This document shows, piece after piece, positions 25,795 to 63,764 of a stretch of 64,000 nt of DNA. The position numbers were made by a program, and so were the translations under genes. The notes beneath the pieces are model-generated. The model was not told the origin of the DNA and searched no databases. It saw nothing but the letters and a program-made list of their open reading frames with translations. The stretch comes from a virus. Its lineage: Duplodnaviria; Heunggongvirae; Uroviricota; Caudoviricetes. Position 1 is the first letter of the stretch; each line of letters starts with the position of its first letter. Location: the IMG/VR virus record IMGVR_UViG_3300020045_008999, positions 532,786 through 596,785 of that record; one strand, 5' to 3'.

Positions 25795-26289
25795 TTGTAT
25801 ATGACAGTAAGTGTGAAACCAAGTGACTTGGTAAAAAGATGTTTATGGGACATGTATGTATATTATGTTGTTGGATCAGAAAAAATAGCGGAAGAAATTC
25901 TCAAAGAAGATATCGAGTTCGAAATATCCGAAACGGATGCTATAGTTATTGGGTTATTGAAATGTATTGAAACTAATAATCTTATACATAAATTCAATGA
26001 ACATATGATACACATGTTGAGTGTTAAATCATCTAAAAATGAAAATAGTTTGTTCATTAGAAAGAAAACCGTAGAAACCACTATCGAAAAATTTATTGGA
26101 AAGTTTCCAGACTATTGGAATATGCCATTGGATTATAAAGTAGGCTTTTCAGATCTTCTAGTATATGTTACCGACTTACAGGCGAGTATAGAAAATTTAG
26201 AAGTTCATAAAATGACTTTCCAGAATTGTGTATATGAGTCCTATTCGAGTGCAGCTGTTAAGAAAATATTAAACTTTATACATTATTAA
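25795..26289 (+). CDS. Hypothetical protein
   Basis: ORF; AAACTTT-N14-GTATAA at 25755-25781. Confidence 0.6.
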   Translation: MYMTVSVKPSDLVKRCLWDMYVYYVVGSEKIAEEILKEDIEFEISETDAIVIGLLKCIETNNLIHKFNEHMIHMLSVKSSKNENSLFIRKKTVETTIEKFIGKFPDYWNMPLDYKVGFSDLLVYVTDLQASIENLEVHKMTFQNCVYESYSSAAVKKILNFIHY

Positions 26290-26291
26290 CT

Positions 26292-26762
26292 ATGGAAGAA
26301 ATCATTAATATCATATTAAATACCCCAAATGATACTGAGTTAGGTACCGCTATTCGAAATTTATATTACGAATCACCGGAACTTTTTGATCAAAATGATA
26401 AATATCTAAGATTGTTTGCAGAGTTTGACAACTTCAAAAAACGTTCCTATAAAGAGCGTGGGGATATTGAGAACCGGGCTAAGATGGATGCAATTGATCC
26501 GTTGCTGGAATTATATGATGATTTATATTATTCGCTTAAAAACAGCCCAGTGGACAATGACGGCATACAAATAGTGTATGATAAATTGGGGAGAAAATTA
26601 TTGACGATCGGTATTGTTGAAGTGTCCACTGAAATTTATGATTCCGAAGTACATGAAGTGATTAGTGTAATTGGAACCGGGAAAGAAATTATTGATGTTG
26701 TATCAAAGGGATATAGCATTAATGGGGTTATATATCGCTATCCGAAAGTAGTTCTAGGGTAA
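26292..26762 (+). CDS. grpE: GrpE nucleotide exchange factor
   Basis: YLRLFAEFDNFKKR, HEVI, VVSKGY...RYPKVV. Confidence 0.85.
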   Translation: MEEIINIILNTPNDTELGTAIRNLYYESPELFDQNDKYLRLFAEFDNFKKRSYKERGDIENRAKMDAIDPLLELYDDLYYSLKNSPVDNDGIQIVYDKLGRKLLTIGIVEVSTEIYDSEVHEVISVIGTGKEIIDVVSKGYSINGVIYRYPKVVLG

Positions 26763-26865: not shown

Positions 26866-29241
26866 ATGAACGAACAAATAATAGATTTAAAGGAAAATAA
26901 TAAAAAAATATTAGGCAAAAGAACAAACAACACGGAAGTTCCATTAATAGACCACATGAACCAGGTAAAGGATAAGGCAGAAATGATAAAGGGTAAATTT
27001 TACTATGATAGATACAACGGGCCCAAACGTCATTATAGTGATGCTCTGTTAACCGCTGCACAATTTCATGATATAGGCAAAGCTAATCCGGTATTCCAAC
27101 TAAAAGTAATGATGACCAAACAAGACTTTGAAGATACCGAACTCATGACAGATGTAAAATATAAAAATGGTATTATACTAACTAATAAATTCAGACATAA
27201 TGAGATCGGTGCGGCATTTATGTATATTTGGACCAACGTAGAATATGAAGTAGTTAAATTGATATATTGGCACCATGGGATTTCGAAAAATAACCAGATC
27301 AATAAGACTGGGTTTAGTGAGATATTGAAAGGGGTTGATGTTGAACAAATGAAGAATATTGTCCGTGAATTAAACCCTGATATATTACTAACGGAACCCA
27401 AAGACAGTATTAACTGCCCTACCTTTTACACTACTAACATGAACATAGCTAATATCGCACTACATGAAGATGATAGTGATTTCATGACTACATTAAGTTA
27501 CTTAATAAGTGCGGACAGAATGGTATCTGGTTCATCGATTAACATTTCGAATGTAATTAATAAACAACCAGTGACTACATATACTAATCCATACAACAAT
27601 GACCGATTTGCTGATCAAGAAAGAATTGCAATGGATGCTACTCATGTAGAAGGCGGCGAAGATAAGCGAGTTACACAAATCAATGCGCCTGGTGGATTTG
27701 GCAAAACCATGGTTGGGTTATTGTGGAGTTTGAAGTCTGATAAAAGGCTAATTTGGGTTTGTCCAAGAAATTTTATTACTGAAAATATTTACGAATCGAT
27801 AAAAAAAGAACTCAAGCTTCTTAATGTCAAATACAAGGTATCGTGTATTATTGCCGGTGAAGTCACTCGATCTAATTATGAAGAACTTGGTATTGTCAAC
27901 GAACCAAACATCTATGAATCGGATATAGTTGTAACTAATATAGATTCATATTTACGCCCAAATTACGAACTAAACAATGTACATGCTTCATTGAATATTC
28001 TAAATGCTGATGTGATTTTTGACGAGTATCACGAATTGATATCTAAGAGTGGTGGAATATTTGCACTATTTTCTAAAATACTGAAAGCTAGAAATTCCTA
28101 TTCTAAACATGGCAAAACTCTTTTATTGTCCGCAACACCCATCGATTTTTCAAGTCGTTGGCATGTAAAATATGGTGGTGGTTCCTATATATTACCCTCA
28201 AACGACGGACATTATCCACCAATACATGATAAGAAATACAAAGTAACGGTGACCATTGATCAGAAGATTGTCAAAATTAATGACTTGACACTATATGTAA
28301 AAAATACAATAAAGAGTGCTCAAGAATTGGCCATTTACTATAAACATTCTAATTTATTACATCACAAGTTCCAAGAAGTCGACAAAGAAAGAATATTTGG
28401 TGAAATGATACGTTCGTATGGTGCCGGCGGCAAATATAAGAAACAACATAATTTACCTGGGTTTATAGGAACCCATGTAATACAATCATCATTAGATATA
28501 TCGTTCAAACATATGGTTGAAGACGTTATATCACCATCAGCCAGTATGCAACGTTTTTCTAGATGTGATCGAGCAGGGGATTACGATAGTGTTCAATTCG
28601 GACAATCTGAGGTGACATTCAATTTAAACACGGATAAAAGTAGTGAGACAATTTCTGAAATATTATATGAATCAGATTTAACAATTCTTTGGCACGGATA
28701 TTTACGAATACATCATCAGCCTCAAATGACAATTGCCGAACTTTATACGCTATACCGTGATTTTAATAGAGTTTATAGTTCTTCAATTACTAATTGGGTA
28801 AGTGACTGCTATAATGATTCTAATAATAATCTATTAGCGATATACCCAATAAAGTATTTCAAGCAGAAAGCCAACAAAAATAAAAATAGCGTTCCAAATA
28901 ATATAATGCGGTCAGATAGTAACCATGTAGCATACACATGTCTTCTAGATGATGGATCTGGAAATTATATGCTCCCATTATCACAAGGTTTGTATAAAAA
29001 TAGTTACCCACAAACTTTTAAAGAGCCAGGTGATTGGAGGGAATGTATGGTTAATTTTATAGAAGAACAAAATAAATTACCAAACTCAATATTTGATTTT
29101 AGTAAATATAAAAATAAAGGAAATAAGGTTCTAGTATGGACTGATGATAATATGCGAAAAAGCTTTAGAAATTACGACACACCATATTTATCGGTAAATG
29201 ATGTATATTCGCCAATATATGGTGTAATACGTAATAAATAA
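26866..29241 (+). CDS. cas3: CRISPR-associated nuclease/helicase Cas3 (HD + SF2)
   Basis: LIDH, FHDIGKANPVFQ, RHNE, WHHG, SAD; APGGFGKT, DEYH, SATP, NTI, SLDISF, QRFSRCDR; adjacent to Cascade genes and array. Confidence 0.93.
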   Translation: MNEQIIDLKENNKKILGKRTNNTEVPLIDHMNQVKDKAEMIKGKFYYDRYNGPKRHYSDALLTAAQFHDIGKANPVFQLKVMMTKQDFEDTELMTDVKYKNGIILTNKFRHNEIGAAFMYIWTNVEYEVVKLIYWHHGISKNNQINKTGFSEILKGVDVEQMKNIVRELNPDILLTEPKDSINCPTFYTTNMNIANIALHEDDSDFMTTLSYLISADRMVSGSSINISNVINKQPVTTYTNPYNNDRFADQERIAMDATHVEGGEDKRVTQINAPGGFGKTMVGLLWSLKSDKRLIWVCPRNFITENIYESIKKELKLLNVKYKVSCIIAGEVTRSNYEELGIVNEPNIYESDIVVTNIDSYLRPNYELNNVHASLNILNADVIFDEYHELISKSGGIFALFSKILKARNSYSKHGKTLLLSATPIDFSSRWHVKYGGGSYILPSNDGHYPPIHDKKYKVTVTIDQKIVKINDLTLYVKNTIKSAQELAIYYKHSNLLHHKFQEVDKERIFGEMIRSYGAGGKYKKQHNLPGFIGTHVIQSSLDISFKHMVEDVISPSASMQRFSRCDRAGDYDSVQFGQSEVTFNLNTDKSSETISEILYESDLTILWHGYLRIHHQPQMTIAELYTLYRDFNRVYSSSITNWVSDCYNDSNNNLLAIYPIKYFKQKANKNKNSVPNNIMRSDSNHVAYTCLLDDGSGNYMLPLSQGLYKNSYPQTFKEPGDWRECMVNFIEEQNKLPNSIFDFSKYKNKGNKVLVWTDDNMRKSFRNYDTPYLSVNDVYSPIYGVIRNK

Positions 29242-29313: not shown

Positions 29314-30405
29314 ATGAAAAACAACGTACAGAACATTCTTTTTAGAGTGAAATTGAAGGGAAATGGTATTGTGAATTTTGATTCGGATAATCAAAAATGG
29401 GATTTAGTTAAACATGGTATAAAACATTTGGTTCCCACCGATGATAATAATCAAATGGTGAGTAATACGAAATATGCCAAGAAACGTTTTTTCAAAGATG
29501 CTGATGGCAATCCATCTTACAAAATCGCGATATCGTCAACGTGTTTAGGTAAGGCTATATATGCAGACCACCTTGAAATTACTACGCCGATGATCGGAGT
29601 GAATGACATTTTATTTATGGGATGTGTGGCTAGTCCCGCGTCATTATTGCGTGGCTATGTACAAACTCGTGGTAAGAATTCTGTATCATATAATCGAAAG
29701 GGCACAGTGACACTAAGTGATGCAGTCCAGTCAAACGGTGCTATATCTTCAGTAGAAACTATGACCAAAGCCGGATCCAGAAGTGCAACTTCATTATATA
29801 ACCAAGAAAATGTAAGTGATATAGAGTATGAAGCAACTGGTATAATGAATTTACAAGAAATGCAATTCTATTCGGTGGATACATTACATTCCCGAGCTAT
29901 GTTTTCTGATGATTTATTTCCAATGTTTTCCAAATTAATTAAGTCGCGTATGCCGGAATTTGATTCAGAAATAGGGTATTATACTTTGAAGACTTGCGAA
30001 GCTAAGATACCAGAAAAGGGATTTGTCATTAACGATGAATGTATGTTACATTTGGTTAAGTTTTATTTCTCTAATTTGATCAGAGCTAAAATAACAAGAG
30101 CTCATGGACATGCTGCTGTACACGAAGTTGAATATAAACTGGTAACTGATACGGTTTATGGTGGCATGAATGATACAAGTGATTGGATAAAAATCAAATC
30201 ACAATCATGCATTGATTCAATGTCTTTTGGTACAAAAGAATGGTACCAAGAATATAGTGATTCTGAAAGTGATTCAATTAGAAGTCTAATTGATGTAGTT
30301 GAAGTAACTACTAAAGAAAATAAAAAGAAAAAAAACGAAGAAGCATCTGCTAGAAAGGCAGCGGCCGCTGAGACACGTCTTAAAAATAAAGATGATGGGA
30401 AATAA
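29314..30405 (+). CDS. cas7: Cas7 backbone subunit, type I-Fv (I-F2)-like
   Basis: FRVKLKGNGIVN, ISSTC, ASLLRGYV, AGSRSATS, EMQFYSVD, GFVIND are colinear with recalled Cas7fv motifs (FKIKALGHGVVN, ISQNC, GLIRGYV, AGARDSTS, QLQFISLD, GILLND). Confidence 0.85.
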   Translation: MKNNVQNILFRVKLKGNGIVNFDSDNQKWDLVKHGIKHLVPTDDNNQMVSNTKYAKKRFFKDADGNPSYKIAISSTCLGKAIYADHLEITTPMIGVNDILFMGCVASPASLLRGYVQTRGKNSVSYNRKGTVTLSDAVQSNGAISSVETMTKAGSRSATSLYNQENVSDIEYEATGIMNLQEMQFYSVDTLHSRAMFSDDLFPMFSKLIKSRMPEFDSEIGYYTLKTCEAKIPEKGFVINDECMLHLVKFYFSNLIRAKITRAHGHAAVHEVEYKLVTDTVYGGMNDTSDWIKIKSQSCIDSMSFGTKEWYQEYSDSESDSIRSLIDVVEVTTKENKKKKNEEASARKAAAAETRLKNKDDGK

Positions 30406-31405
30406 TTTAGGATACATAAAATTAGTCTTTGATTCTGCAAAATTATTTAGGGTTGCAAAAGACGAGAAAATTGGATCACTTTCACCCAAAGCTGGTTTAT
30501 TAAAATCACAAGAATCAATTGATGGAAAATCTCTTACCAAGCGTAAGAGATTTGGCTTTGTGAATCCAATTACTTATTATCAAATCAGTAATGTATTATG
30601 TGCACTTACTGGTAATCGTCCAGTTAATTCAGTCAGGTTTACTAGATTCGAGCACAATAACGACTATATCGATTGGGCAAAACAGTGTTACTTAAAGTAC
30701 ACAAATTTACTCACATATGATGAAGATGGGCTTATTTTGCCAACTCGAAGTGTTGTCACAACTTCTAAGGCTATGGATAATTCTAATGTAACCCAAGTGT
30801 TATTAACCTGGAGTGATATTAAATATTTCGTAGGCGAATATATCAAAGATGCATTAAGCATGTCCGCTTTCGACCAGTTGCTATCCCACTATAATGTAAA
30901 CATGTGCGATGCCACTTTTGAAGATTTTTTAGAAGTGGTAGCTAAAAGTGGTGATACTAAAACATTATATACTTGGCTGTATGGTTTGAATAAAAATGGA
31001 ACCCCTTCAAAAACACTGCTGAATGATATTACTTATTATTACATTTCTAAGGGACATATTGATAAGTCGCTTCCGGGATTTAATATAAAAGGACATGTAT
31101 TTGGTAATTACACAATTCCTATGACTCAGAATATGCCTAGTTCTGGGAATATGCGAGCTACCGATGATTGGCGAATTGGTGCCAGAATAAAAAGTGGCAT
31201 CAATCACCATGAATTATTTTGTGGTGAAATTTTGGTACCAATTAGAAAAGTGGGGGATCTTCAAAAATTTCTAGTCGGGTCCGGAGTTTGTACTATATTG
31301 GATGGGGGTGTAGTGACCATACATGGCGAGGCTAATCCGGAAATTGACCACCTATCAGAATTTGAATTAGTAGGAAATATATCAGACGAACGTCTAATCA
31401 ATTAA
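30392..31405 (+). CDS. cas5: Large Cas5, type I-Fv (I-F2)-like
   Basis: 337 aa; N-terminal beta strand, TYYQISNVLCALTG helix, helical insertion, C-terminal G-rich loop GSGVCTILDGG; position between cas7 and cas6. Confidence 0.7.
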   Translation: MMGNNLGYIKLVFDSAKLFRVAKDEKIGSLSPKAGLLKSQESIDGKSLTKRKRFGFVNPITYYQISNVLCALTGNRPVNSVRFTRFEHNNDYIDWAKQCYLKYTNLLTYDEDGLILPTRSVVTTSKAMDNSNVTQVLLTWSDIKYFVGEYIKDALSMSAFDQLLSHYNVNMCDATFEDFLEVVAKSGDTKTLYTWLYGLNKNGTPSKTLLNDITYYYISKGHIDKSLPGFNIKGHVFGNYTIPMTQNMPSSGNMRATDDWRIGARIKSGINHHELFCGEILVPIRKVGDLQKFLVGSGVCTILDGGVVTIHGEANPEIDHLSEFELVGNISDERLIN

Positions 31406-31417
31406 AAAATATCATAT

Positions 31418-32182
31418 ATGCGTATTAAAATATCATTTACTGAAAACAATAAACCAGTCCCAGTAGACAATCAGTATCATTTAAATTCCTATATACATAA
31501 ATGTTTAGGAAATAACAATAAATACCACAATGCCAAAAGTGATTACTCAATTTCACATCTATACGGTGGTACTCTAAATAAGTCCAATAACACATTAAAT
31601 TTTGAAAAGGGTGGCTATATTATAATATCATCGATGGATAAAGAGTTTATGGGTGCTTTATTTGCGGGAATATATGCTAATCAACTATTTGGATTTGGCA
31701 TGCAGTTCAAATCAGTTGATAATGTAGCCGCTGAATATTTCTATGCCGGATGGAATCACTTTGCAACACTATCACCATTTATTATTAAAGAATATCAGGA
31801 TAAAAAAAACTATACATTCTTAACGCTAGATGATCCTAATTTTGAATACAAAGTGAAGCAATATTTAATTCGCAAAATTCGCAAAATCAATCCTAGATTG
31901 GATTTGTCTGATTTTGATATAAATATCAAAACTCACGAAAAGCACAAAATTAAAAAAATATTGATAAAGAATGTTATCAATCATGCGAATCAATGTCAGA
32001 TTTCAATTTATACAAATCCTAAAGTTGCTAAACTATTGTACCACATAGGAATAGGACAATCAACCGGTTCTGGTCTTGGTACAATATATCCTACATCTAA
32101 ACATAGCTTTTATCGTGAGGTGAAAATACATTCAGGTAATGTTACTAAAGTAGATAGGATCGAAAAAATGCAAATGTATTAA
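31418..32182 (+). CDS. cas6: Cas6 crRNA endoribonuclease (I-B/III-like, not Cas6f)
   Basis: MRIKISF, YSIS, TLSP, C-terminal GIGQSTGSGLG (GhGxxxxxGhG). Confidence 0.9.
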   Translation: MRIKISFTENNKPVPVDNQYHLNSYIHKCLGNNNKYHNAKSDYSISHLYGGTLNKSNNTLNFEKGGYIIISSMDKEFMGALFAGIYANQLFGFGMQFKSVDNVAAEYFYAGWNHFATLSPFIIKEYQDKKNYTFLTLDDPNFEYKVKQYLIRKIRKINPRLDLSDFDINIKTHEKHKIKKILIKNVINHANQCQISIYTNPKVAKLLYHIGIGQSTGSGLGTIYPTSKHSFYREVKIHSGNVTKVDRIEKMQMY

Positions 32183-32274
32183 TAATAGTGTGTATAAAAT
32201 GTGTCGAAATCAGAATATTAACACCCAAAAATCCAGTACAAACTACTACACTTCAATAAGTTATACTGTGGTAT
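32183..32274 (+). promoter_or_regulatory. CRISPR leader, array 1
   Basis: AT-rich; ACAAACTACTACA (32238-32250) is shared with the leader of the second array. Confidence 0.6.
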
Positions 32275-32864
32275 AGTAGTACTTATAGTAATCCGTAAGG
32301 GAATCACAACCATTCAGAAGGAGCAAATCCTAAATTATTAAGTAGTACTTATAGTAATCCGTAAGGGAATCACAACAACGGTATAACTCTTATAATCACC
32401 GCGGTCAGTAGTACTTATAGTAATCCGTAAGGGAATCACAACACGGAAAAGACGAAAGTTTAATATATAGGAGTAGTACTTATAGTAATCCGTAAGGGAA
32501 TCACAACCGGATCTAGGTTTATTAAAATTTTAGTTAAGTAGTACTTATAGTAATCCGTAAGGGAATCACAACACTTATTAATTCCTGCGACTGGCGAGTA
32601 ACAGTAGTACTTATAGTAATCCGTAAGGGAATCACAACTAGTAATCGAAAAAACGGTTAGTGATTACAGTAGTACTTATAGTAATCCGTAAGGGAATCAC
32701 AACATGATGAGAAGAAATAAAAATGTGGATCAAAGTAGTACTTATAGTAATCCGTAAGGGAATCACAACACTCTATAGATTATTTAATAACTCTAAGAAA
32801 GTAGTACTTATAGTAATCCGTAAGGGAAATATAATAGAATTAATTGGGATCTAATTTTATGAAT

Positions 32865-32961
32865 GGGAATTATATCGGTCCGTGTGGAAAACACATCATA
32901 ATATGTTTAAGTTCTTTGAAATCTTTGGTAGTTATAGTGATCTGAAAGGGAATCACAACAA
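32865..32961 (+). repeat. 97-bp block duplicated within array (copy 1)
   Basis: 2 mismatches versus 33715-33811. Confidence 0.9.
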
Positions 32962-33714
32962 AGTGTAAAAATTGGTTTCCATATACTATGGTAGTACTTA
33001 TAGCAATCCGTAAGGGAATCACGACCACGCTATAGATTATGCTGGTAGAAATACAGTTAATAATTATATCAATCCGTAAGGGAATCACAACAGGCGTTCT
33101 CATGGAGGCGGCTTTGAATAAAGTAGTACTTATGACAATCCGTAAGGGAATCACAACAAGTGACACTTCAATGCCAAAAAAAGTAATAGTAGTACTTATG
33201 ACAATCCGAAAGGGAATCACAACATAAACGGATTACACACCACACGGCTAGAAAGTAGTACTTATGACAATCCGAAAGGGAATCACAACTAGTTATGGAC
33301 GTAGAGAGAGATCCCTTTAAGTAGTACTTATGACAATCTGAGAGGGAATCACAACACATAAATAATTTTACCACAATCCGAAAGGGAATCACAACGTGAT
33401 AAACGCAATTTGGTCGTTTGGGTCCAGTAGTACTTATGACAATCCGAAAGGGAATCACAATGTCGGATGTCATGTTAATACATCTCAGATGAGTAGTACT
33501 TATGACAACCCGAAAGGGAATCACAACTATAGTGGCCTCTAGCTCCACTTTTGTTACAGTAGTACTTATAGCAATCCGTAAGGGAATCACAACGGAAATC
33601 TTCTTGAGGCACAACAGGAAAATAGTAGTACTTATAGCAATCCGTAAGGGAATCACAACAGGACCGATAGCGTGGTGTATAATAGATTTGAGTAGTACTT
33701 ATGTTAATCCATAA

Positions 33715-33811
33715 GGGAATTATATCGGTCCGTGTGAAAAACACATCATAATATGTTTAAGTTCTTTGAAATCTTTGGTAGTTAAAGTGATCTGAAAGGG
33801 AATCACAACAA
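33715..33811 (+). repeat. 97-bp block duplicated within array (copy 2)
   Basis: 2 mismatches versus 32865-32961. Confidence 0.9.
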
Positions 33812-34238
33812 GCGTAAGCAACACCAATATTTTAAAGAGTTGCCACTTATAGCAATCCGTAAGGGAATCACAACAGTGCTGCGGGTAATTATCCAAATAA
33901 AATTAGTAGTACTTATAGTAATCCGAAAGGGAATCAGAACAAACTGTATTGGGGTAGTCATTTTATTTTTGGTAGTACTTATAGCATTCCGTAAGGGAAT
34001 CACAACATCATTGAATTTGAGCTAGGTGTTCAAGCAGTTGGTACTTATAGCAATCCGAAAGGGAATCACAACAATCAGTGCATCAAAAATTGAATAATCA
34101 TTAGTAGTACTTATAGCAATCCGAAAAGGAATCACAACAAATGAACAGAATTAAATTAGAATTAGAAAAGTAGTATTTATAGTAATCCGTAAGGGAATCA
34201 TCGCAAATAACCTGGTGAAAATTTAAAGAAAAATAATT

Positions 34239-51334: not shown

Positions 51335-52456
51335 ATGGAATGGAAATTCAAATATTATGACATTTTAACCGGTATTGATTGGTTATCACTTGAAACTAAT
51401 TGTGATTGGTTTCGTGATATGGCTGATATACCACAAGATAAAATTTGGCATGCTGAGGGTGATGTTCAGATACATACTAAAATGGTTTGTGAAGCGTTAG
51501 CGGAATTACCAGAATTTAAAAAATTATCCGATCGTGATAAACACATTTTAATGACTAGTGCGTTAATGCATGATATTGAAAAAAGATCAACCACCGAAGA
51601 AAAAGAAAAGGACGGGCGAGTGTGCGTAGTAGCACCAAAGCATGCTGATAGAGGTGAAAAGACTGCTAGGATAATATTATACAAGGATTTTGATTGTCCT
51701 TATCAAATACGTGAATTGATATGTAAGTTAGTTAAGTGGCATGGGAAGCCATTACACAATTGTAGTGAAAAAACCATAATTAATTTAGCCACTCAGGTTC
51801 CCATTATCTGGTTGAGTATGCTTTCCAAAGCAGATATTTTAGGAAGGATATGTGACGATGCCGATACACAATTATATGCAATTGAATTCTTTTCCACATT
51901 TGCGGAAGACCTTCAATGTTTTAATAGTCCAAGGGAATTCAAGGACATGCTCACTGAATATACCTACTTGTCTAAAGATGTGTATTTGGACTACGAACCT
52001 TTTGACGACACCAAATTTAAAGTTACTATGTTATCTGCCTTACCAGGTTCCGGTAAAGATACTTATTTACGCAACCATTTACCGGGTGCCAATGTCATAT
52101 CGTTAGATGATATTCGAATTGAGATGGGGGTTAAGCGTAGGGACACCAAGGGCAATGGGCAAGTCATACAAGAGGCTAAAGAAAGAGCTAAGAAATACAT
52201 GAGGAAACACGTGGATTTCGTTTGGAACGCGACAAACATCACCAAACAACTTCGCTCACAGATAATTGATTTGTTTCTATCATATGGTGCTAGAGTAGAA
52301 ATAATTTATATTGAGGTCCCATATAAGCAAACCATATTACAAAACAAATCTCGCGAAGACATGATTCCCCAAACCGCAATCGATAAAATGATTGAGAAGT
52401 TGGAACCCCCGGTTCGGGAAGAAGCCCACTCAATAACATATTACGTAAATCAATAA
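51335..52456 (+). CDS. HD-domain + P-loop (AAA_33) polynucleotide kinase-like protein
   Basis: QDKIWHAEGDV..HT, HDIEK; LPGSGKDT, SLDDIR, WNATN. Confidence 0.8.
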   Translation: MEWKFKYYDILTGIDWLSLETNCDWFRDMADIPQDKIWHAEGDVQIHTKMVCEALAELPEFKKLSDRDKHILMTSALMHDIEKRSTTEEKEKDGRVCVVAPKHADRGEKTARIILYKDFDCPYQIRELICKLVKWHGKPLHNCSEKTIINLATQVPIIWLSMLSKADILGRICDDADTQLYAIEFFSTFAEDLQCFNSPREFKDMLTEYTYLSKDVYLDYEPFDDTKFKVTMLSALPGSGKDTYLRNHLPGANVISLDDIRIEMGVKRRDTKGNGQVIQEAKERAKKYMRKHVDFVWNATNITKQLRSQIIDLFLSYGARVEIIYIEVPYKQTILQNKSREDMIPQTAIDKMIEKLEPPVREEAHSITYYVNQ

Positions 52457-54416: not shown

Positions 54417-57400
54417 ATGGACAAAACAATTGTACACTTGGCTGATTTCCAAGTAGAAGCTAGAAATTCGGGAATAGGGAACAGGTATGACGAATATAAA
54501 AACGGTCTTTCTGATGCACTAGAATCTATAAAAAATCAATCACCTGATATTGTTATAATCACCGGTGATTTATATCAATTTGCAGATACCACTGCTGCTG
54601 AAAGAAAATTACTAACATGGTTTCTGAAAGAGTTGGCTAAAATATCCAATGTGGTAATCACTAATGGTAATCACGATTTAAAGCAACGCAACAACCAACT
54701 TATTATTTCGGATAAAAATCAAACACAACCCGATGATATAGAAAGTGTTTTAGATGCACTAAGCCTACCAAATATAAAATATTTAAAAAGAACTGGTTTT
54801 TACAATGTATTCGACCAGGATTTTGCCGTATGGGGGCATTATGAAAAATTCAACAAAGTTGAAGACGATTTACTACCTTATTCACCATGGGATCTTCCAA
54901 ATGCGGATGATTATATTAGTAAAGCAGTAGATGGTACGTTAATCGAATTGTACCACGATCCAATTTCAAACTGTAAGGGATTTTCCGGCAAACCAGAGCT
55001 ACACTTTGTTGATTACAAAATGGAATTGTCTATGTTCAAATCTAAATTAGTTTTAGCCGGTGATATACATGCACCGGATATAATTGAGTATGCTAAAGGT
55101 TGCTATTTTACCTATTGTTCTTCAACAATAATGCGTAATCACGGGGAGGGTAACTATTATAAAAATTCAACACTCATACAAGATGGTAATAATAAACACG
55201 GTTACAATTCAATAAAATATGTAAATGGTGTTCCAGAGATTACATTTGTAGAGATACACCCAAGAGTTGGAAGACATACCATTTATTTAGACGCTGACTT
55301 TAATTATAACAATATTTCAGAATTGACGATAACCCAGCACAATTATAATATAATTAGATTTGTTGTTGAGGATAATGTCAATGACTTTTTCACAAACCAA
55401 GATCTTATCTTTGCTCATTTAAAAACGAAATACAATTGTTTAATAGAAGATCCTAGGTTTGATAAAAACATTGGAATTGAAATGGATGATGAACATACTG
55501 TTGATAATATAGAAAGTATTGTCACTGAGGAAAAAATCATGGAACTTTCTGAAATTTATATAAACAAAGTAATTGATAAAACCACCACAATTGCCGCTGA
55601 TGATCGCCCCGCTGCAAAGCGCATGTTACTAGATTTATTCAATAATGAATTTCTTAAAAGAGCGGATGTTGCAAATACCATGAAATACATCCAGGTAAAT
55701 CGCTTAAATATTTCCAATGCCTTAACATTTGGTGATGATGTTGAAATAATATTTAATGAGAGTGGGATTACTAGGATAACTGGGTCTAATGCGGTTGGTA
55801 AAACGAAAATATTCACAATACTTGGTTATATGTTTACTGATAAGTTATACGCGGACCAAAAAGTATCACAATATAAGAATAATCGATTAGACTTGTTTAA
55901 TTATAATAGGCCAAACGATGAAGTATTTACTGAAATGGATTTTTCTATAAATAAATTACCGTATAAATTATCCAAACGGGTTACTCGTGGGTGGAAACGT
56001 GGTAAAAATATGTGGAATGATAAAGACTGGAGAGATCATATCAATGCTACGCCGGATTTGGAAATTATTTTAACCACACCAGAGGGTGTTGTTACGGACT
56101 ATAATGAAGTGATGGCATTTATGACCGATTTAATCACATTTGAAGAATTTTATACACATCTTTTCGTCAATCAGCGTTCATTGGAAACTTTATTAAAAAT
56201 GAATCCTGATATATTGATTGGTGAAATTTTAAAAATAATAGGACTTAACTTCTTTGATTCTTTAAACGATTCATTTGATGAAGTGCGTGATACTATTACC
56301 AATACGTTGACTAAACCACAAGGTACAATGGACTCACTTTTCGAAGAAATAAATACTAATTTGGCTTTGATTGAATCTTTAACAGATGAAAAGTCCCTAT
56401 TGATGGTACATAATTTATCATTGGATAGTTTACAAACTATTGCAGCGGACCAAAGTGAAAATATAACTAAACGAATTGGTTCGGTTCGAGAAGAAAAGGT
56501 AGTTCAAGCAGAAATAGATACTGCCAATGAAAAAATAAAAGAACTGAATGGCCATGTTGATCGCATTAAATTGATTTTAGATGCAGACCGATTGATTTAT
56601 GATGGGATTGATGTGTTGTCATTGAAAAGTGACAACATAATCAATAATGCTACGATCTCTCAAAATAATAAAGAAATTGCTACAAACGAAGCAAGTAAAA
56701 ATCAACTTGATGCAGTTGTTGCTAATCTGAAATCAGAAATAAACAACTTTAAAAATGAGCATGAGAATAAGAAAAATGGTGATAAAAACATCATTGACAT
56801 TGAAATCAATAAACAAAAAGAAAAACAAGCGGGACTTTCTTCTCGTGCTGCTGAAATTAAAGAAATTATTTCACTACACAAACAAAAACTCAAAGATGAA
56901 AAACAGTTAAAAATTGACAAGCTTTTAGTTGCTATTGATCGTGAAAAAATAGAATTGGGTAACTTAGAAAGTGCGTTAGTTAAAAATGAAAACATTATAG
57001 CGACGAACGAGATTATTATCACAAATTCTAATCTAAGTATTGAGACTTTAATACAGGGGAAAACATGCCCGACATGTTTACGTGAAAAAGATGAAACTAA
57101 ATTAGATGGAATCAATGAATCTATCGCAAAACATGAACGTGACATTTTACATGCTAATGCAGTAATTGACGACACTAAAACTTTAATAGATGTACTTGGT
57201 ATTGAAATTGAAACTGTTTCATCACATGTAATTAGCGGTGAAGCAAATATACTAAAAATGCGTTCCGAAGAAATCGAATATTCTTTAAAAGATAATTCGG
57301 AATTATTCGAAGAGGGTAAAATACTTAAACTGGATCATGGTTTGGCAGAAGAAATTATCTTAAAATTAATTGATGATAAATCGGTAATTGATTTAGATAA

Positions 57401-58355
57401 TTCATATTTAACCAGCGACTATATAACTAAGAGAGAAGACCGAATTGCTAATATAAAAGAGGAAGAAGCCGCTTATGATGCATCAATCGTATTATTAGAA
57501 AAAAGTATAGATACCATTCGTGATTTGATTAAAGCATGTGAGGACAAGATCGATTTAAAGTCGACTAAAGAAATTGCTATAATCAGAATGGAATCTGAGA
57601 TTAACAACCATACTAAAGATATTTCAATTATTGATGATAAGTTAGGCCAATTAAATACTGAGATCGTTGCATCTATAGATGCAAATACATTGTTTGATGA
57701 GTTAGCAGCTATAAAAACTTCGATTTACGATCGTAAGATAGAGATTACTGAAAACGAAAATGACATAAATGAGAAAACTATTGCCATAAAAATGGCCAGT
57801 CTTAAAATCGAAGAATGTGAGACCAATATTACCAATTTAAAGCAGTATAATTTAACTACAGCTGTTATTAAACAATACAAGACCATGTTGGGTAAGACCG
57901 GATTACAGAAATATATTTTCGGTAAAATTGTTGATATACTTAACACGAAATTAAGTGATTTATTACAAGATGTGGATTTCCGTCTATTCTTTGACAAAGA
58001 ATCATTAGATTTGCGAAAATATAGTTTGCGTAAAAATGTAATTAGTGGGGTTCAAATGACCTCTGGTATGGAAACTACTATTTTAGGTTTAAGTTTACTG
58101 AATTCACTCAAAATGTTAAACCAAATTAGAAAGTTTAATTTTCTAATGATTGATGAAGTTTCCGGACAAATGAATAATGGTAAAAATTTAACATACTCAG
58201 CAAGTGACTACCAAGATTTATTGGTTCAGTTGTTGCATAAAATAAGAGAAACTAGTAACATTTATATAGTGGATCACGTGCTTGAATTTTTAGGTGAGAC
58301 AAGTGTTCTAGAAGTTCAGTATACCGAACATGGATCTATAGTAACTGTTCAATAA
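54417..58355 (+). CDS. Fused SbcD-SbcC (Mre11-Rad50, T4 gp47-gp46-like) recombination nuclease/ATPase
   Basis: HLAD, GDL, GNHD, GDIH; Walker A GSNAVGKT, coiled coil with CPTC hook, SGME signature, IDE, DH. Confidence 0.9.
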   Translation: MDKTIVHLADFQVEARNSGIGNRYDEYKNGLSDALESIKNQSPDIVIITGDLYQFADTTAAERKLLTWFLKELAKISNVVITNGNHDLKQRNNQLIISDKNQTQPDDIESVLDALSLPNIKYLKRTGFYNVFDQDFAVWGHYEKFNKVEDDLLPYSPWDLPNADDYISKAVDGTLIELYHDPISNCKGFSGKPELHFVDYKMELSMFKSKLVLAGDIHAPDIIEYAKGCYFTYCSSTIMRNHGEGNYYKNSTLIQDGNNKHGYNSIKYVNGVPEITFVEIHPRVGRHTIYLDADFNYNNISELTITQHNYNIIRFVVEDNVNDFFTNQDLIFAHLKTKYNCLIEDPRFDKNIGIEMDDEHTVDNIESIVTEEKIMELSEIYINKVIDKTTTIAADDRPAAKRMLLDLFNNEFLKRADVANTMKYIQVNRLNISNALTFGDDVEIIFNESGITRITGSNAVGKTKIFTILGYMFTDKLYADQKVSQYKNNRLDLFNYNRPNDEVFTEMDFSINKLPYKLSKRVTRGWKRGKNMWNDKDWRDHINATPDLEIILTTPEGVVTDYNEVMAFMTDLITFEEFYTHLFVNQRSLETLLKMNPDILIGEILKIIGLNFFDSLNDSFDEVRDTITNTLTKPQGTMDSLFEEINTNLALIESLTDEKSLLMVHNLSLDSLQTIAADQSENITKRIGSVREEKVVQAEIDTANEKIKELNGHVDRIKLILDADRLIYDGIDVLSLKSDNIINNATISQNNKEIATNEASKNQLDAVVANLKSEINNFKNEHENKKNGDKNIIDIEINKQKEKQAGLSSRAAEIKEIISLHKQKLKDEKQLKIDKLLVAIDREKIELGNLESALVKNENIIATNEIIITNSNLSIETLIQGKTCPTCLREKDETKLDGINESIAKHERDILHANAVIDDTKTLIDVLGIEIETVSSHVISGEANILKMRSEEIEYSLKDNSELFEEGKILKLDHGLAEEIILKLIDDKSVIDLDNSYLTSDYITKREDRIANIKEEEAAYDASIVLLEKSIDTIRDLIKACEDKIDLKSTKEIAIIRMESEINNHTKDISIIDDKLGQLNTEIVASIDANTLFDELAAIKTSIYDRKIEITENENDINEKTIAIKMASLKIEECETNITNLKQYNLTTAVIKQYKTMLGKTGLQKYIFGKIVDILNTKLSDLLQDVDFRLFFDKESLDLRKYSLRKNVISGVQMTSGMETTILGLSLLNSLKMLNQIRKFNFLMIDEVSGQMNNGKNLTYSASDYQDLLVQLLHKIRETSNIYIVDHVLEFLGETSVLEVQYTEHGSIVTVQ

Positions 58356-59231: not shown

Positions 59232-60296
59232 TTATCTATTATGTAAATCATTAATGAAATCTACATCAATTGATTTTAACGTTTCCAAGAATAATTTAGT
59301 TGCATTACTCACATCATCGGTATGTGCCATTTCAACAGTACAGTGCATGTATTTCAATGGTGTTGAAATTATAGCAGTTGGTGTACCACCATTTGCTAAA
59401 AAGAACCCCATTGTATCATTACCATATGATCCAATCTCCAATTGTAATGGTAAGTTTTTATTTTTGGCAACCTCTCTAATTTTCTTCAAAACTTTTCGGT
59501 GGTTCTGTGTAGTGTACTGAATAGATGGGCCTTTACCACCGATCACTTTACCCTCTTTACTTTCGTCCATTTTTGGGGTATTCGTATTATGACACACATC
59601 GTGAACCAATGCTAAATCCGGCTTAAGACGATGTGCTATCATTTTCGCACCATGTAAGCCAACCTCTTCTTGTACTGAATTTACAATATATAAATTAAAT
59701 GGCAATTTAATATTATCTTGTTTCAATTTACGAGCAACCTCAGCAATAATATAACCGCCGATTTTATTATCCAATGATTTTCCGGTCCAGTAGTTACCAA
59801 TTTTAGAAAATTTATCATCGAATATCACCATATTACCAACTTCTATTCCATTTTTATCTACCTCGTCACGAGTTAAACCAAGATCAACCCACAGTTCATG
59901 TGGTTCTGGTCCCTTTACGGTATAACTTTCGCGAGTGTGTACGGCCGGACTCCCAAAAACACCTCTGTGATACTTACCATCATGCGTTCTGACCACTACC
60001 GTCTTGGAGGCAGCAATCATATTATCGGAACCACCATTGCGTTTAACACGAAGCATACCATCAGGATCAATCATATTGACCATCCAACAAATTTCATCAA
60101 CATGCGCTTCCAATACAACAGTTAATGGATTTTCGGTTTCGGATTTTATCAAACAATAAGCAGTACCATATGGGTCTAATTGTACATCATCCACAAATGG
60201 GGTGATGTAATCAGTCCATACTTTCTGACATTCAAACTCTTCACCCACCGGGGAAAATGCATCCATGTAATTAAATAGAAATTTCTTACTCTTCAT
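59232..60296 (-). CDS. M42-family metallo-aminopeptidase
   Basis: AHVDEI, LDNK.G, QEEVGL.GA, DV, YMH. Confidence 0.9.
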   Translation of the reverse strand: MKSKKFLFNYMDAFSPVGEEFECQKVWTDYITPFVDDVQLDPYGTAYCLIKSETENPLTVVLEAHVDEICWMVNMIDPDGMLRVKRNGGSDNMIAASKTVVVRTHDGKYHRGVFGSPAVHTRESYTVKGPEPHELWVDLGLTRDEVDKNGIEVGNMVIFDDKFSKIGNYWTGKSLDNKIGGYIIAEVARKLKQDNIKLPFNLYIVNSVQEEVGLHGAKMIAHRLKPDLALVHDVCHNTNTPKMDESKEGKVIGGKGPSIQYTTQNHRKVLKKIREVAKNKNLPLQLEIGSYGNDTMGFFLANGGTPTAIISTPLKYMHCTVEMAHTDDVSNATKLFLETLKSIDVDFINDLHNR

Positions 60297-62084: not shown

Positions 62085-62105
62085 ACAAATAAATAGTGTT
62101 TGTAC

Positions 62106-62549
62106 ATGAGTCGAATTTATATAGACATGGATGAAGTGATGAGCAATTATTCAAAACTTTTTCAGGCCGAGTTTTCAGATGAGAACAAATATCCACAATC
62201 GCGGAAAGGCTTCTTTGCGGAGCTAGAACCTATTGAGGGAGCTATTGAATCAGTCAAACATTTAATTGACGAATTTGATGTTTGGATATTGACAGCACCA
62301 TCTTATATGAATCCCCATTGTTATACAGACAAACGAGTCTGGATAGAAAAATATTTTGGTTTGGAATTTTGCAAAAAATTGATAATAGCATATGATAAGA
62401 GTTTACTTATTGGTGACTTTTTGATTGATGATAGTATTAAAAACAACCAAAGTAAATTCAATGGCGAGTTAATTCCATTCGGACAAGAACATTATAGTAA
62501 TTGGGTCGAGGTACTTAGGTACCTCGATTCTTTACGATTAAAAGAATAA
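62106..62549 (+). CDS. 5'(3')-deoxyribonucleotidase (HAD, NT5C-like)
   Basis: YIDMDEV, LEPIEGA, ILTAP, K..W, GDFLIDD. Confidence 0.85.
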   Translation: MSRIYIDMDEVMSNYSKLFQAEFSDENKYPQSRKGFFAELEPIEGAIESVKHLIDEFDVWILTAPSYMNPHCYTDKRVWIEKYFGLEFCKKLIIAYDKSLLIGDFLIDDSIKNNQSKFNGELIPFGQEHYSNWVEVLRYLDSLRLKE

Positions 62550-62806: not shown

Positions 62807-63764
62807 GTTGGTACTTATAGTAATCCGTAAGGGAATCACAACGTGAGATTTGAATGCTTTTTTCCCATTGAGGTTGGTACTTATAGTAATCCGTAAGGGA
62901 ATCACAACGTATCTGATAAGCTACAGCTTTTAAATAATGTTGGTACTTATAGTAATCCGTAAGGGAATCACAACGGCACCAGTATCCATTAACCTAGAGG
63001 TAAAGTTGGTACTTATAGTAATCCGTAAGGGAATCACAACAATAGCCCAATTAGTAATAGAGCGAGAATTGTTGGTACTTATAGTAATCCGTAAGGGAAT
63101 CATAACTACATAAATAGGTATTCCCAAATTAGTCAGGTTAGTACTTATAGTAATCCGTAAGGGAATCACAACTGCGTGGTGGTTAACTTCTGAAATGTTA
63201 TCGTTAGTACTTATAGTAATCCGTAAGGGAATCACAACGGTGAGTGAATTTTAAAACATAAAGGTTTGTTAGTACTTATAGTAATCCGTAAGGGAATCAC
63301 AACAACCCATAATTAATTATAATGTAGTTGAGGTTAGTACTTATAGTAATCCGTAAGGGAATCACAACAAGAGTGGAATTATCTCAATTTTACGGTATGT
63401 TGGTACTTATAGTAATCCGTAGGGGAATCACAACAAACGAGATAAAAATGGATACAAAGTTTTTGTTGGTACTTATAGTAATCCGTAAGGGAATCACAAC
63501 GGTCTTAAACTAAAATATCCAAATAACTGGGTTGGTACTTATAGTAATCCGTAAGGGAATCACAACAGAAAATGCTGGATCAAAAAATAACGCATCGTTG
63601 GTACTTATAGTAATCCGCAAGGGAATCACAACCGAAATAGATAACATTATTAGATTTTCAAAGTTAGTACTTATATTAATCCGAAAGGGAATCACAACGA
63701 ATTGGAAGAGTTGGAAAACGATTACCAAGTTAATACTTATATTAATCCGAAAGGGAACTGTCAT
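62807..63764 (+). CRISPR. CRISPR array 2: 15 repeats (GTT(G/A)GTACTTATAGTAATCCGTAAGGGAATCACAAC), 14 spacers of 29-30 nt
   Basis: 66-nt period; degenerate last repeat; no adjacent cas genes seen; leader motif ACAAACTACTACA at 62748-62760. Confidence 0.97.

Follow-up and report, generated by a model that had tools for sequence, protein, structure and literature searches.

The cas module

The DNA analysed here (the window) is a 64-kb stretch, positions 532786-596785, forming the terminal part of a 596,785-bp IMG/VR virus record with a CheckV completeness of 98%, and a four-gene cas module is encoded on its + strand. The first gene, cas3 (26866..29241, + strand, identified with Pfam and PADLOC), encodes a stand-alone HD nuclease and helicase of 791 amino acids that begins with the HD domain and has no Cas2 fusion. 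The Pfam matches are Cas3_HD (1e-10), DEAD (4e-13), and Cas3-like_C_2 (9e-10), and the PADLOC match to Cas3fv (8e-57) is restricted to model positions 377-827. The second gene (29314..30405, + strand) encodes a Cas7fv-like backbone subunit of 363 amino acids whose relationship to known Cas7fv proteins is significant but distant: the NCBIfam model cas_Cas7fv matches at 2.3e-14 with 53.5 bits, under its 200-bit cut-off, PADLOC Cas7fv matches at 1.7e-12, and the Cas7fv chains of PDB codes 5O6U, 5O7H, and 9G44 match at 1.5e-8. A search of IMG/VR with this protein returned no relatives.

The third gene (30392..31405, + strand) occupies the cas5fv position and encodes 337 amino acids of no matched family, with zero matches in Pfam, NCBIfam, PADLOC, PDB, and Atlas and an AF2 model with a pLDDT of 50, too poor for a structure search. 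It is kept between the cas7fv-like gene and cas6 in every sibling locus, and its product is a putative handle-binding subunit. The module closes with cas6 (31418..32182, + strand, 254 amino acids), with matches to TIGR01877 (NCBIfam, 8.6e-23, over the cut-off), Cas_Cas6_C (Pfam, 9e-14), and Cas6b (PADLOC, 7e-41). Its best matches are thus generic Cas6 and Cas6b and it is not of the Cas6f type; no relatives were found among GenBank phages.

An HD and SF2-helicase Cas3 adjoining Cas7-family and Cas6 genes identifies a type I (class 1) system, and the class 1 effector claimed in the preliminary description is therefore present as cas3, the cas7fv-like gene, and cas6. The module is a type I system without cas1, cas2, or Cas8, composed of Cas3, the Cas7fv-like protein, a third subunit, and a Cas6b-like Cas6. 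Immediately upstream of cas3 lies a gene for a GrpE-like nucleotide exchange factor (26292-26762, Pfam 5e-17), itself preceded by a small ORF with a sub-threshold HDOD match (25795-26289). Elsewhere in the window an ORF of 1312 amino acids (54417-58355) combines an N-terminal calcineurin-like phosphoesterase with a weak SMC_N match and may be a fused SbcD-SbcC-like nuclease, and an HD-domain and AAA_33 kinase-like protein is encoded at 51335-52456.

No Cas1, Cas2, or Cas4 (Pfam) and no Cas9 (NCBIfam) is found in the whole 596,785-bp record, the absence of cas1 being defined by Pfam models and tblastn only; the prospect of a phage-encoded cas1/cas2 elsewhere, against which the first description had guarded, accordingly finds nothing in its favor in the Pfam profiles. 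The Cas9 search gave one weak HNH-domain match of a type also seen in control genomes. In six sibling loci, too, the roughly 10 kb around the module contain no Cas1, Cas2, Cas4, or Cas9 (Cas1 and Cas2 by Pfam), and tblastn with Cas9, II-C Cas1, II-C Cas2, and the Saprospira Cas1 gives no match on 45 repeat-holding metagenome contigs.

Genome traits and host signals

Shine-Dalgarno-like motifs are almost wholly missing from the phage record, being present upstream of just 3 of its 466 long ORFs; the region from -20 to -1 before the ORFs is strongly A-rich and G-poor over the whole record and the motif TAnnTTTG is 2.6-fold enriched upstream of the ORFs. Scarcity of Shine-Dalgarno motifs, A-rich and G-poor upstream regions, and TAnnTTTG are traits of Bacteroidota gene expression. 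Bacteroidota are also the predicted hosts of the largest known phages (PMC7162821), and the huge-phage family carrying the Cas3/Cas7fv-like/Cas6 module probably infects Bacteroidota. No specific host was found for this phage, and the genome signals alone point to that phylum. Tracing of the host through the M42 glutamyl aminopeptidase gene (59232-60296, - strand, Pfam 2e-71) was dropped because the closest homologues, at 63-85% identity, are likewise on phage-like contigs; it seems to be a long-standing phage gene and not a recent acquisition from a host. A search of sequencing runs located a 255-nt piece in one biofilm metagenome, with no RNA run among the matches listed.

Layout of the four arrays

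Four CRISPR arrays with 36-nt repeats and 29-31-nt spacers lie on the + strand of the window, three directly downstream of cas6 and the fourth another 28.6 kb on, so that the format first described for 32275-32835 extends to three further arrays. The 43 repeat copies, with a period of 65-67 nt and all on one strand, are far beyond chance, and the regular near-identical repeats, unique spacers of constant length, and degenerate terminal repeat are those of CRISPR arrays. Array 1 (32275..32835, + strand) consists of nine 36-nt repeats (AGTAG...ATCACAAC) and eight unique spacers of 29-30 nt; eight of the repeats are identical and the ninth is degenerate over its last 8 nt. The stretch between the cas6 stop codon and the first repeat (32183..32274, + strand) is the putative leader. 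Array 2 (32924..33726, + strand) contains 12 worn repeats and one further copy, truncated at its 5' end (33368-33397), that lies in a 70-nt gap (33356-33425) and looks like the scar of a deletion or of faulty integration. Array 3 (33774..34204, + strand) has seven repeats, and both array 2 and array 3 contain many repeat variants.

A leader-like stretch of about 47 nt ending GTTCTTTGAAATC is present in two copies, before array 2 (32877-32923) and array 3 (33727-33773), and the two arrays have a similar odd first repeat. The motif GTTCTTTGA[A/C]AT recurs about 70-85 nt upstream in the leaders of two sibling loci (L005 and L006), and TTCTTTGAAAT is the start of the odd first repeat in another sibling pair (L112 and L091); the shared leader-like stretch and motif may act as a promoter element or as a signal for integration. 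Array 4 (62807..63764, + strand), the cas-distal array, has 15 repeats (GTTGG/GTTAG...ATCACAAC) and 14 spacers of 29-30 nt, ends in a degenerate terminal repeat, and stops 236 nt before the end of the record. A gene for an NT5C-type 5' nucleotidase (62100-62549) lies directly upstream of its leader. The terminal repeat of each array is degenerate at its 3' end, which places the leader on the cas6 side.

The spacers have no match in the phage's own genome at up to 4 mismatches, and the 3' half of the repeat is not found on the reverse strand, as a possible anti-repeat, at up to 3 mismatches. Protospacer searches gave one chance match of 32/36 for the region of arrays 1-3 against GenBank phages and nothing for four spacers against IMG/VR or one spacer against metagenomes; no PAM and no target can consequently be read from them. 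Spacers of sibling arrays and of bacterial II-C arrays gave only chance matches of 19-20 nt to this phage genome.

Repeat termini and the internal hairpin

Every repeat of the phage terminates in GGGAATCACAAC. The GTTG...CAAC ends described at the outset for an array 2 repeat are real and are those of the distal array (62807-63764), whereas the repeats at 32275-32835 begin AGTAG. A GTTG start is not kept across the family: it varies even between this phage's own arrays, and a looser motif, N-Y-T-G-K-T, is all that is common to the family repeats. In the phage family T3 is present in 22/22 repeats and G4 in 15/22; the phage and II-C repeat sets share the pentamers ACTGT, GTTGT, and GTTGG, and CCTGT and GCTGG also begin single-locus phage repeats. 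Many CRISPR repeats begin in a similar way, so this 5' motif is weak evidence for II-C kinship.

Folding of the repeat gives an MFE of -2.7 to -2.9 kcal/mol and a z of about 0 relative to shuffled sequences, in agreement with the earlier observation that the long Cas13b-type stem is absent. A small stem formed by T18-C19-C20 and G26-G27-A28 around a 5-nt loop is present in 60-62 of 64 distinct family repeat variants; the loop varies freely, and the stem reflects conservation and not true covariation. The 8 nt ATCACAAC stand directly 3' of this 3-bp stem. In sibling repeats reading ATTCC...GGAAT the stem is extendable to 5 bp and 6 nt then remain, so that the "exactly 8 nt" reported 3' of TCC-N5-GGA hold for the 3-bp version only. 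On the 3-bp version Cas6 would cut 8 nt from the 3' end of the repeat. An Rfam scan of the arrays gave a sole match, sub-threshold and on the minus strand, to CRISPR-DR34 (E 7), which was set aside.

Comparison with bacterial arrays

The nearest placed bacterial relative of the phage Cas6, at 28% identity, is in a I-B-like locus of Saprospira grandis (L016), whose array has a 30-nt repeat and 35-39-nt spacers, the ordinary class 1 format. The 3' halves of the two repeats, CC-N5-GGAAT-TGAAAC in Saprospira and CC-N5-GGAAT-CACAAC in the phage, have the same Cas6-type core and differ in the last six bases. The middle of the phage repeat thus looks like a Cas6b site, which upholds the proposal of a repeat readable by a class 1 Cas6. 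The order in the Saprospira locus is cas6, a 663-aa gene, cas7, a 257-aa gene, and cas3, with no cas1 within 10 kb, and the single Cas1 match of that genome is on another contig (G001:C2:3703867-3704763).

A sample of 401 Bacteroidota genomes, the phylum being chosen from the Saprospira grandis Cas6 relative, was searched with the pattern AATCACAAC-N50-75-AATCACAAC (59-84 nt apart), which is found in 25/401 genomes compared with 0 for the reversed control. The true matches correspond to 18 distinct repeats, three of 36 nt and the remainder of 45-48 nt (mostly 46-47), and nearly all 18 finish TGAAAGC[A/T]AATCACAAC; the 47-nt II-C repeats of B. fragilis and P. intermedia have the same AATCACAAC end (PMC9367070, PMC5608340). 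Spacers in these bacterial arrays are mostly 29-31 nt with a mode of 30. Of the 15 arrays tested, 13 follow cas9 on the same strand at a distance of 3-9 kb downstream and the other two are on broken contigs; cas1 stands between cas9 and the array in 5/5 loci checked for it. No class 1 array ending AATCACAAC was found in the 401 genomes, though the search pattern would catch them. The three II-C loci that have 36-nt repeats (L049, L050, and L051) all contain a conserved ORF of about 205 amino acids separating cas9 from cas1.

In the II-C loci the perfect repeats adjoin cas2 and 3'-end degeneracy is found in the far repeat, and the phage arrays are alike with respect to the leader side; this polarity is consistent with PMC8092290. 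With this shared polarity II-C and phage repeats both end AATCACAAC when read from the leader. The spacer-length distribution is also similar, with about 80% of 30 nt and 12-20% of 29 nt in both, and the phage arrays therefore agree with the II-C format in repeat length, 30-nt spacers, leader-distal AATCACAAC, and leader side. The phage record has neither the adjacent cas9-cas1-cas2 nor the tracrRNA anti-repeat of a II-C locus. Compared with VI-B arrays, GTTG occurs in some repeats only, there is no long stem, and no large HEPN-type ORF adjoins. The 36/30 format had been described as typical of both II-C and VI-B arrays; the match to II-C stands for length, spacers, AATCACAAC, and polarity, and it is II-C and not VI-B repeats that the phage repeat resembles. 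A Cas13b repeat may also end in AATCACAAC, a likeness that is not counted as evidence here. Three Bacteroidota arrays of 36/30 format with GTTG...ACAAC ends, judged from the arrays alone, have interiors unrelated to that of the phage repeat.

In 185,579 species genomes no array carries the 20-nt 3' half of the repeat, which gives single chance matches only, as does the exact 3' half in IMG/VR. No bacterial II-C array with the whole phage repeat was found, and no leader-repeat junction motif common to phage and II-C arrays was seen.

The phage family and spacer turnover

The same module and 36/30 format are present on six huge-phage contigs and 45 metagenome contigs, none of them beside cas1, cas2, or cas9. 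Cas6 relatives at 50-64% identity are numerous, and every sibling context examined, on phage-gene contigs of up to 364 kb, shows the four-gene module followed by a 36/30 array; two Cas6 relatives (P0162 and P0235) were left out of the context comparison as their contigs are too short. In a more distant locus (L012), with a Cas6 at 33% identity, the 36/30 format is retained and the repeat end is AATTTCAAC. The 45 metagenome contigs, obtained from a scan with the 3' half of the repeat and all of 36/30 format, carry Cas6 in 24 cases, the 337-aa gene in 16, the Cas7fv-like gene in 13, and Cas3 in 11. Repeat length is 36 nt throughout the family; of its 386 spacers, 317 measure 30 nt and 48 measure 29 nt.

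Comparison of sibling arrays L112 and L091 shows a common leader and 14 common distal units, repeat SNPs included, with two leader-proximal spacers that differ; this difference at the leader end of otherwise identical arrays, the usual sign of turnover, indicates that spacers are still turning over. Another pair (L096 and L098) has trailer spacers in common. Sibling arrays are partly mosaic with internal differences, which indicates some recombination. The features of adaptation in trans are accordingly divided, with adaptation genes missing in this genome and leader-end differences seen in siblings and not in this genome.

Origin of the spacers

The match of repeat length, spacer size, end motifs, and polarity to II-C arrays, together with the lack of spacer-capture genes, suggests that a host II-C Cas1-Cas2 loads spacers into the phage arrays in trans, a reading to which we assign a probability of roughly 0.55. 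The repeat itself looks like a chimera in which II-C-like termini surround a Cas6 hairpin. During infection the host II-C Cas1-Cas2, possibly with Cas9, would integrate 30-nt spacers at the leader-proximal phage repeat and duplicate the 36-nt repeat, as for the cas1-less VI-B arrays of Flavobacterium columnare. The arrays would be transcribed from the leader on the + strand, the phage Cas6 would cut 8 nt from the 3' end of each repeat to leave an 8-nt handle, the crRNA would assemble with the Cas7fv-like backbone, and Cas3 would degrade matching DNA, presumably of rival phages or other mobile elements. We give about even odds to the wider proposal that the family evolved class 2 termini around a class 1 Cas6 hairpin, so that the integrase of a host Cas9 system loads the arrays and a Cas8-less phage Cascade-Cas3 targets rivals.

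A type I effector normally requires a PAM adjacent to the protospacer. By analogy with F. columnare (PMC8092290) the PAM end of II-C-written spacers would face the leader, and with leader-driven transcription the PAM side would be at the 5' handle of the crRNA, the position at which type I effectors read it. In known II-C systems several bases separate the adaptation motif from the protospacer (PMC8092290), and spacers selected by II-C may therefore suit Cascade poorly, which counts against loading by a host II-C integrase. Also counted against it are the 36-nt length in only 3/18 II-C repeats and, beyond the termini, a phage repeat unlike II-C repeats; in addition, the first repeats of arrays 2 and 3 and of L112/L091 differ from those behind them, which would not be expected if the first repeat were simply copied.

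Spacers could instead be loaded by another integrase, whether a host class 1 or other Cas1-Cas2, one from a co-infecting element, or an unrecognised phage enzyme, with the II-C likeness reflecting shared repeat/Cas1 ancestry; we regard this as unlikely. Such an enzyme would be in keeping with the class 1 character of the Cas6 and of the middle of the repeat, with the lack of a junction motif in common with II-C leaders, with the failure to find a specific host for the phage, and with the cross-type adaptation published for several pairs (PMC8092290; 10.1101/2023.06.23.546257; 10.1101/2024.10.25.620265). However, the class 1 formats of Bacteroidota differ from that of the phage, with 30-nt repeats and 35-39-nt spacers in one case and 29- and 35-nt repeats in others (PMC9367070), and all AATCACAAC-ending arrays in the 401 genomes bore the II-C repeat signature, with zero of class 1; nor was a Cas1 found in the phage record. 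It is more doubtful still that the arrays are relics of an ancestral II-C/VI-B array, or of captured adaptation genes later lost, in which recombination, deletion, and phage-to-phage exchange are now the sole sources of change. The identical repeats and unique spacers of array 1 (eight of each) argue against this, as do the strict 30/29-nt length kept by hundreds of unrelated family spacers and the difference between L112 and L091 solely at the leader end, and termini that are invariant where the rest of the repeat drifts indicate continuing selection on the termini. Arrays 2 and 3, in contrast, show wear in their numerous repeat variants and one truncated copy, and look like a duplication of a leader and first repeat, and the internal differences of mosaic sibling arrays are also what a relic would present.

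Very improbable in our estimation, and the least probable of these alternatives, is that the phage Cas6/Cascade itself, through handle binding and the number of Cas7 subunits, dictates the 36/30 format and the ATCACAAC end, the II-C match being coincidental. As the region where Cas6/Cas5 contact is expected, the last 11 nt of the repeat would be conserved in any case, and L012 retains 36/30 despite its different end, but an identical 9-mer, repeat length, spacer distribution, polarity, and a like 5' end are jointly unlikely by chance, and the bacterial Cas6 relative of Saprospira grandis has another format with the usual TGAAAC end.

Relationship to known systems

The precedent for loading by a host II-C integrase is F. 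columnare, where the II-C and VI-B repeats are both 36 bp and share only the leader-distal GTTGT (ACAAC from the leader), the VI-B array acquires spacers through II-C cas1, and II-C arrays are transcribed toward the leader and VI-B arrays away from it (PMC8092290); the use of the II-C module by a VI-B array without cas1/2, invoked in the preliminary description, agrees with that paper. The F. columnare VI-B array is like the phage arrays in lacking its own cas1/cas2, in its 36-nt repeats, 30-nt spacers, and Bacteroidota setting, in sharing only the leader-distal ACAAC end with II-C, and in transcription from the leader where II-C is transcribed toward it. It differs in its reader, Cas13b, where the phage has a class 1 effector of several subunits that targets DNA and uses Cas6 for processing, and in that the array here is borne by a phage, the integrase would come from another genome, and the dependence on II-C cas1 is putative.

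Type I-F2 (I-Fv) of Shewanella putrefaciens CN-32 (PDB codes 5O6U, 5O7H, and 9G44) resembles the module in being Cas8-less and Cas11-less, with a (distantly) Cas7fv-related backbone and the order cas7, second subunit, and cas6. In contrast to I-F2, the phage Cas3 is not fused to Cas2, there is no Cas1, the Cas6 is of Cas6b and not Cas6f type, and the third gene has no detectable Cas5fv likeness. The phage repeats and spacers are 36/30, whereas the I-F2 format is 28/32. Bacteroidota II-C arrays have the leader-distal AATCACAAC, 30-nt spacers, polarity, and degenerate terminal repeat in common with the phage arrays, and in a subset the 36-nt repeats; the phage differs in having no adjacent cas9, cas1, or cas2, no opposite-strand anti-repeat, an unrelated repeat interior with a Cas6 hairpin, and a presumed opposite direction of transcription. 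In the study of plasmid IV-A3 systems the donor is reportedly the host type I-E system, of the same class and with near-identical repeats, whereas for the phage a class 2 donor and a chimeric repeat are envisaged. The IV-A3 system (10.1101/2023.06.23.546257) is otherwise similar: it too is a class 1 system on a mobile element and lacks adaptation genes, and the integrase of another system is proposed to fill its arrays.

Huge phages mostly lack Cas1, Cas2, and Cas4, and the use of host Cas proteins by phage arrays with host-like repeats has already been proposed (PMC7162821). Those systems resemble the present one in their effector genes, compact arrays, and absence of Cas1, Cas2, and Cas4, and differ in being a I-C variant or class 2 with whole repeats shared with the host, whereas here only the repeat termini and the format match a host type (II-C), and the effector and presumed integrase are of different classes. 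Adaptation-less huge-phage CRISPR systems, the use of host Cas proteins by phage arrays (PMC7162821), and cross-type adaptation in trans (PMC8092290) are thus already published; none of the papers found in our literature search describes a phage class 1 effector combined with arrays of II-C format.

Implications

If spacers are indeed loaded by a host II-C integrase, this would be the first case in which adaptation and interference are divided across CRISPR classes and also across the genomes of host and virus. It would mean that Cas1-Cas2 reads little beyond the termini and length of the repeat, leaving the interior free to evolve for an effector of another class, and would constitute a natural design rule for arrays written by one system and read by another. 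It would also raise the puzzle of how a Cas8-less type I effector handles spacers picked by a Cas9-linked motif. For the huge phages, it would explain how their many adaptation-less CRISPR systems stay current.
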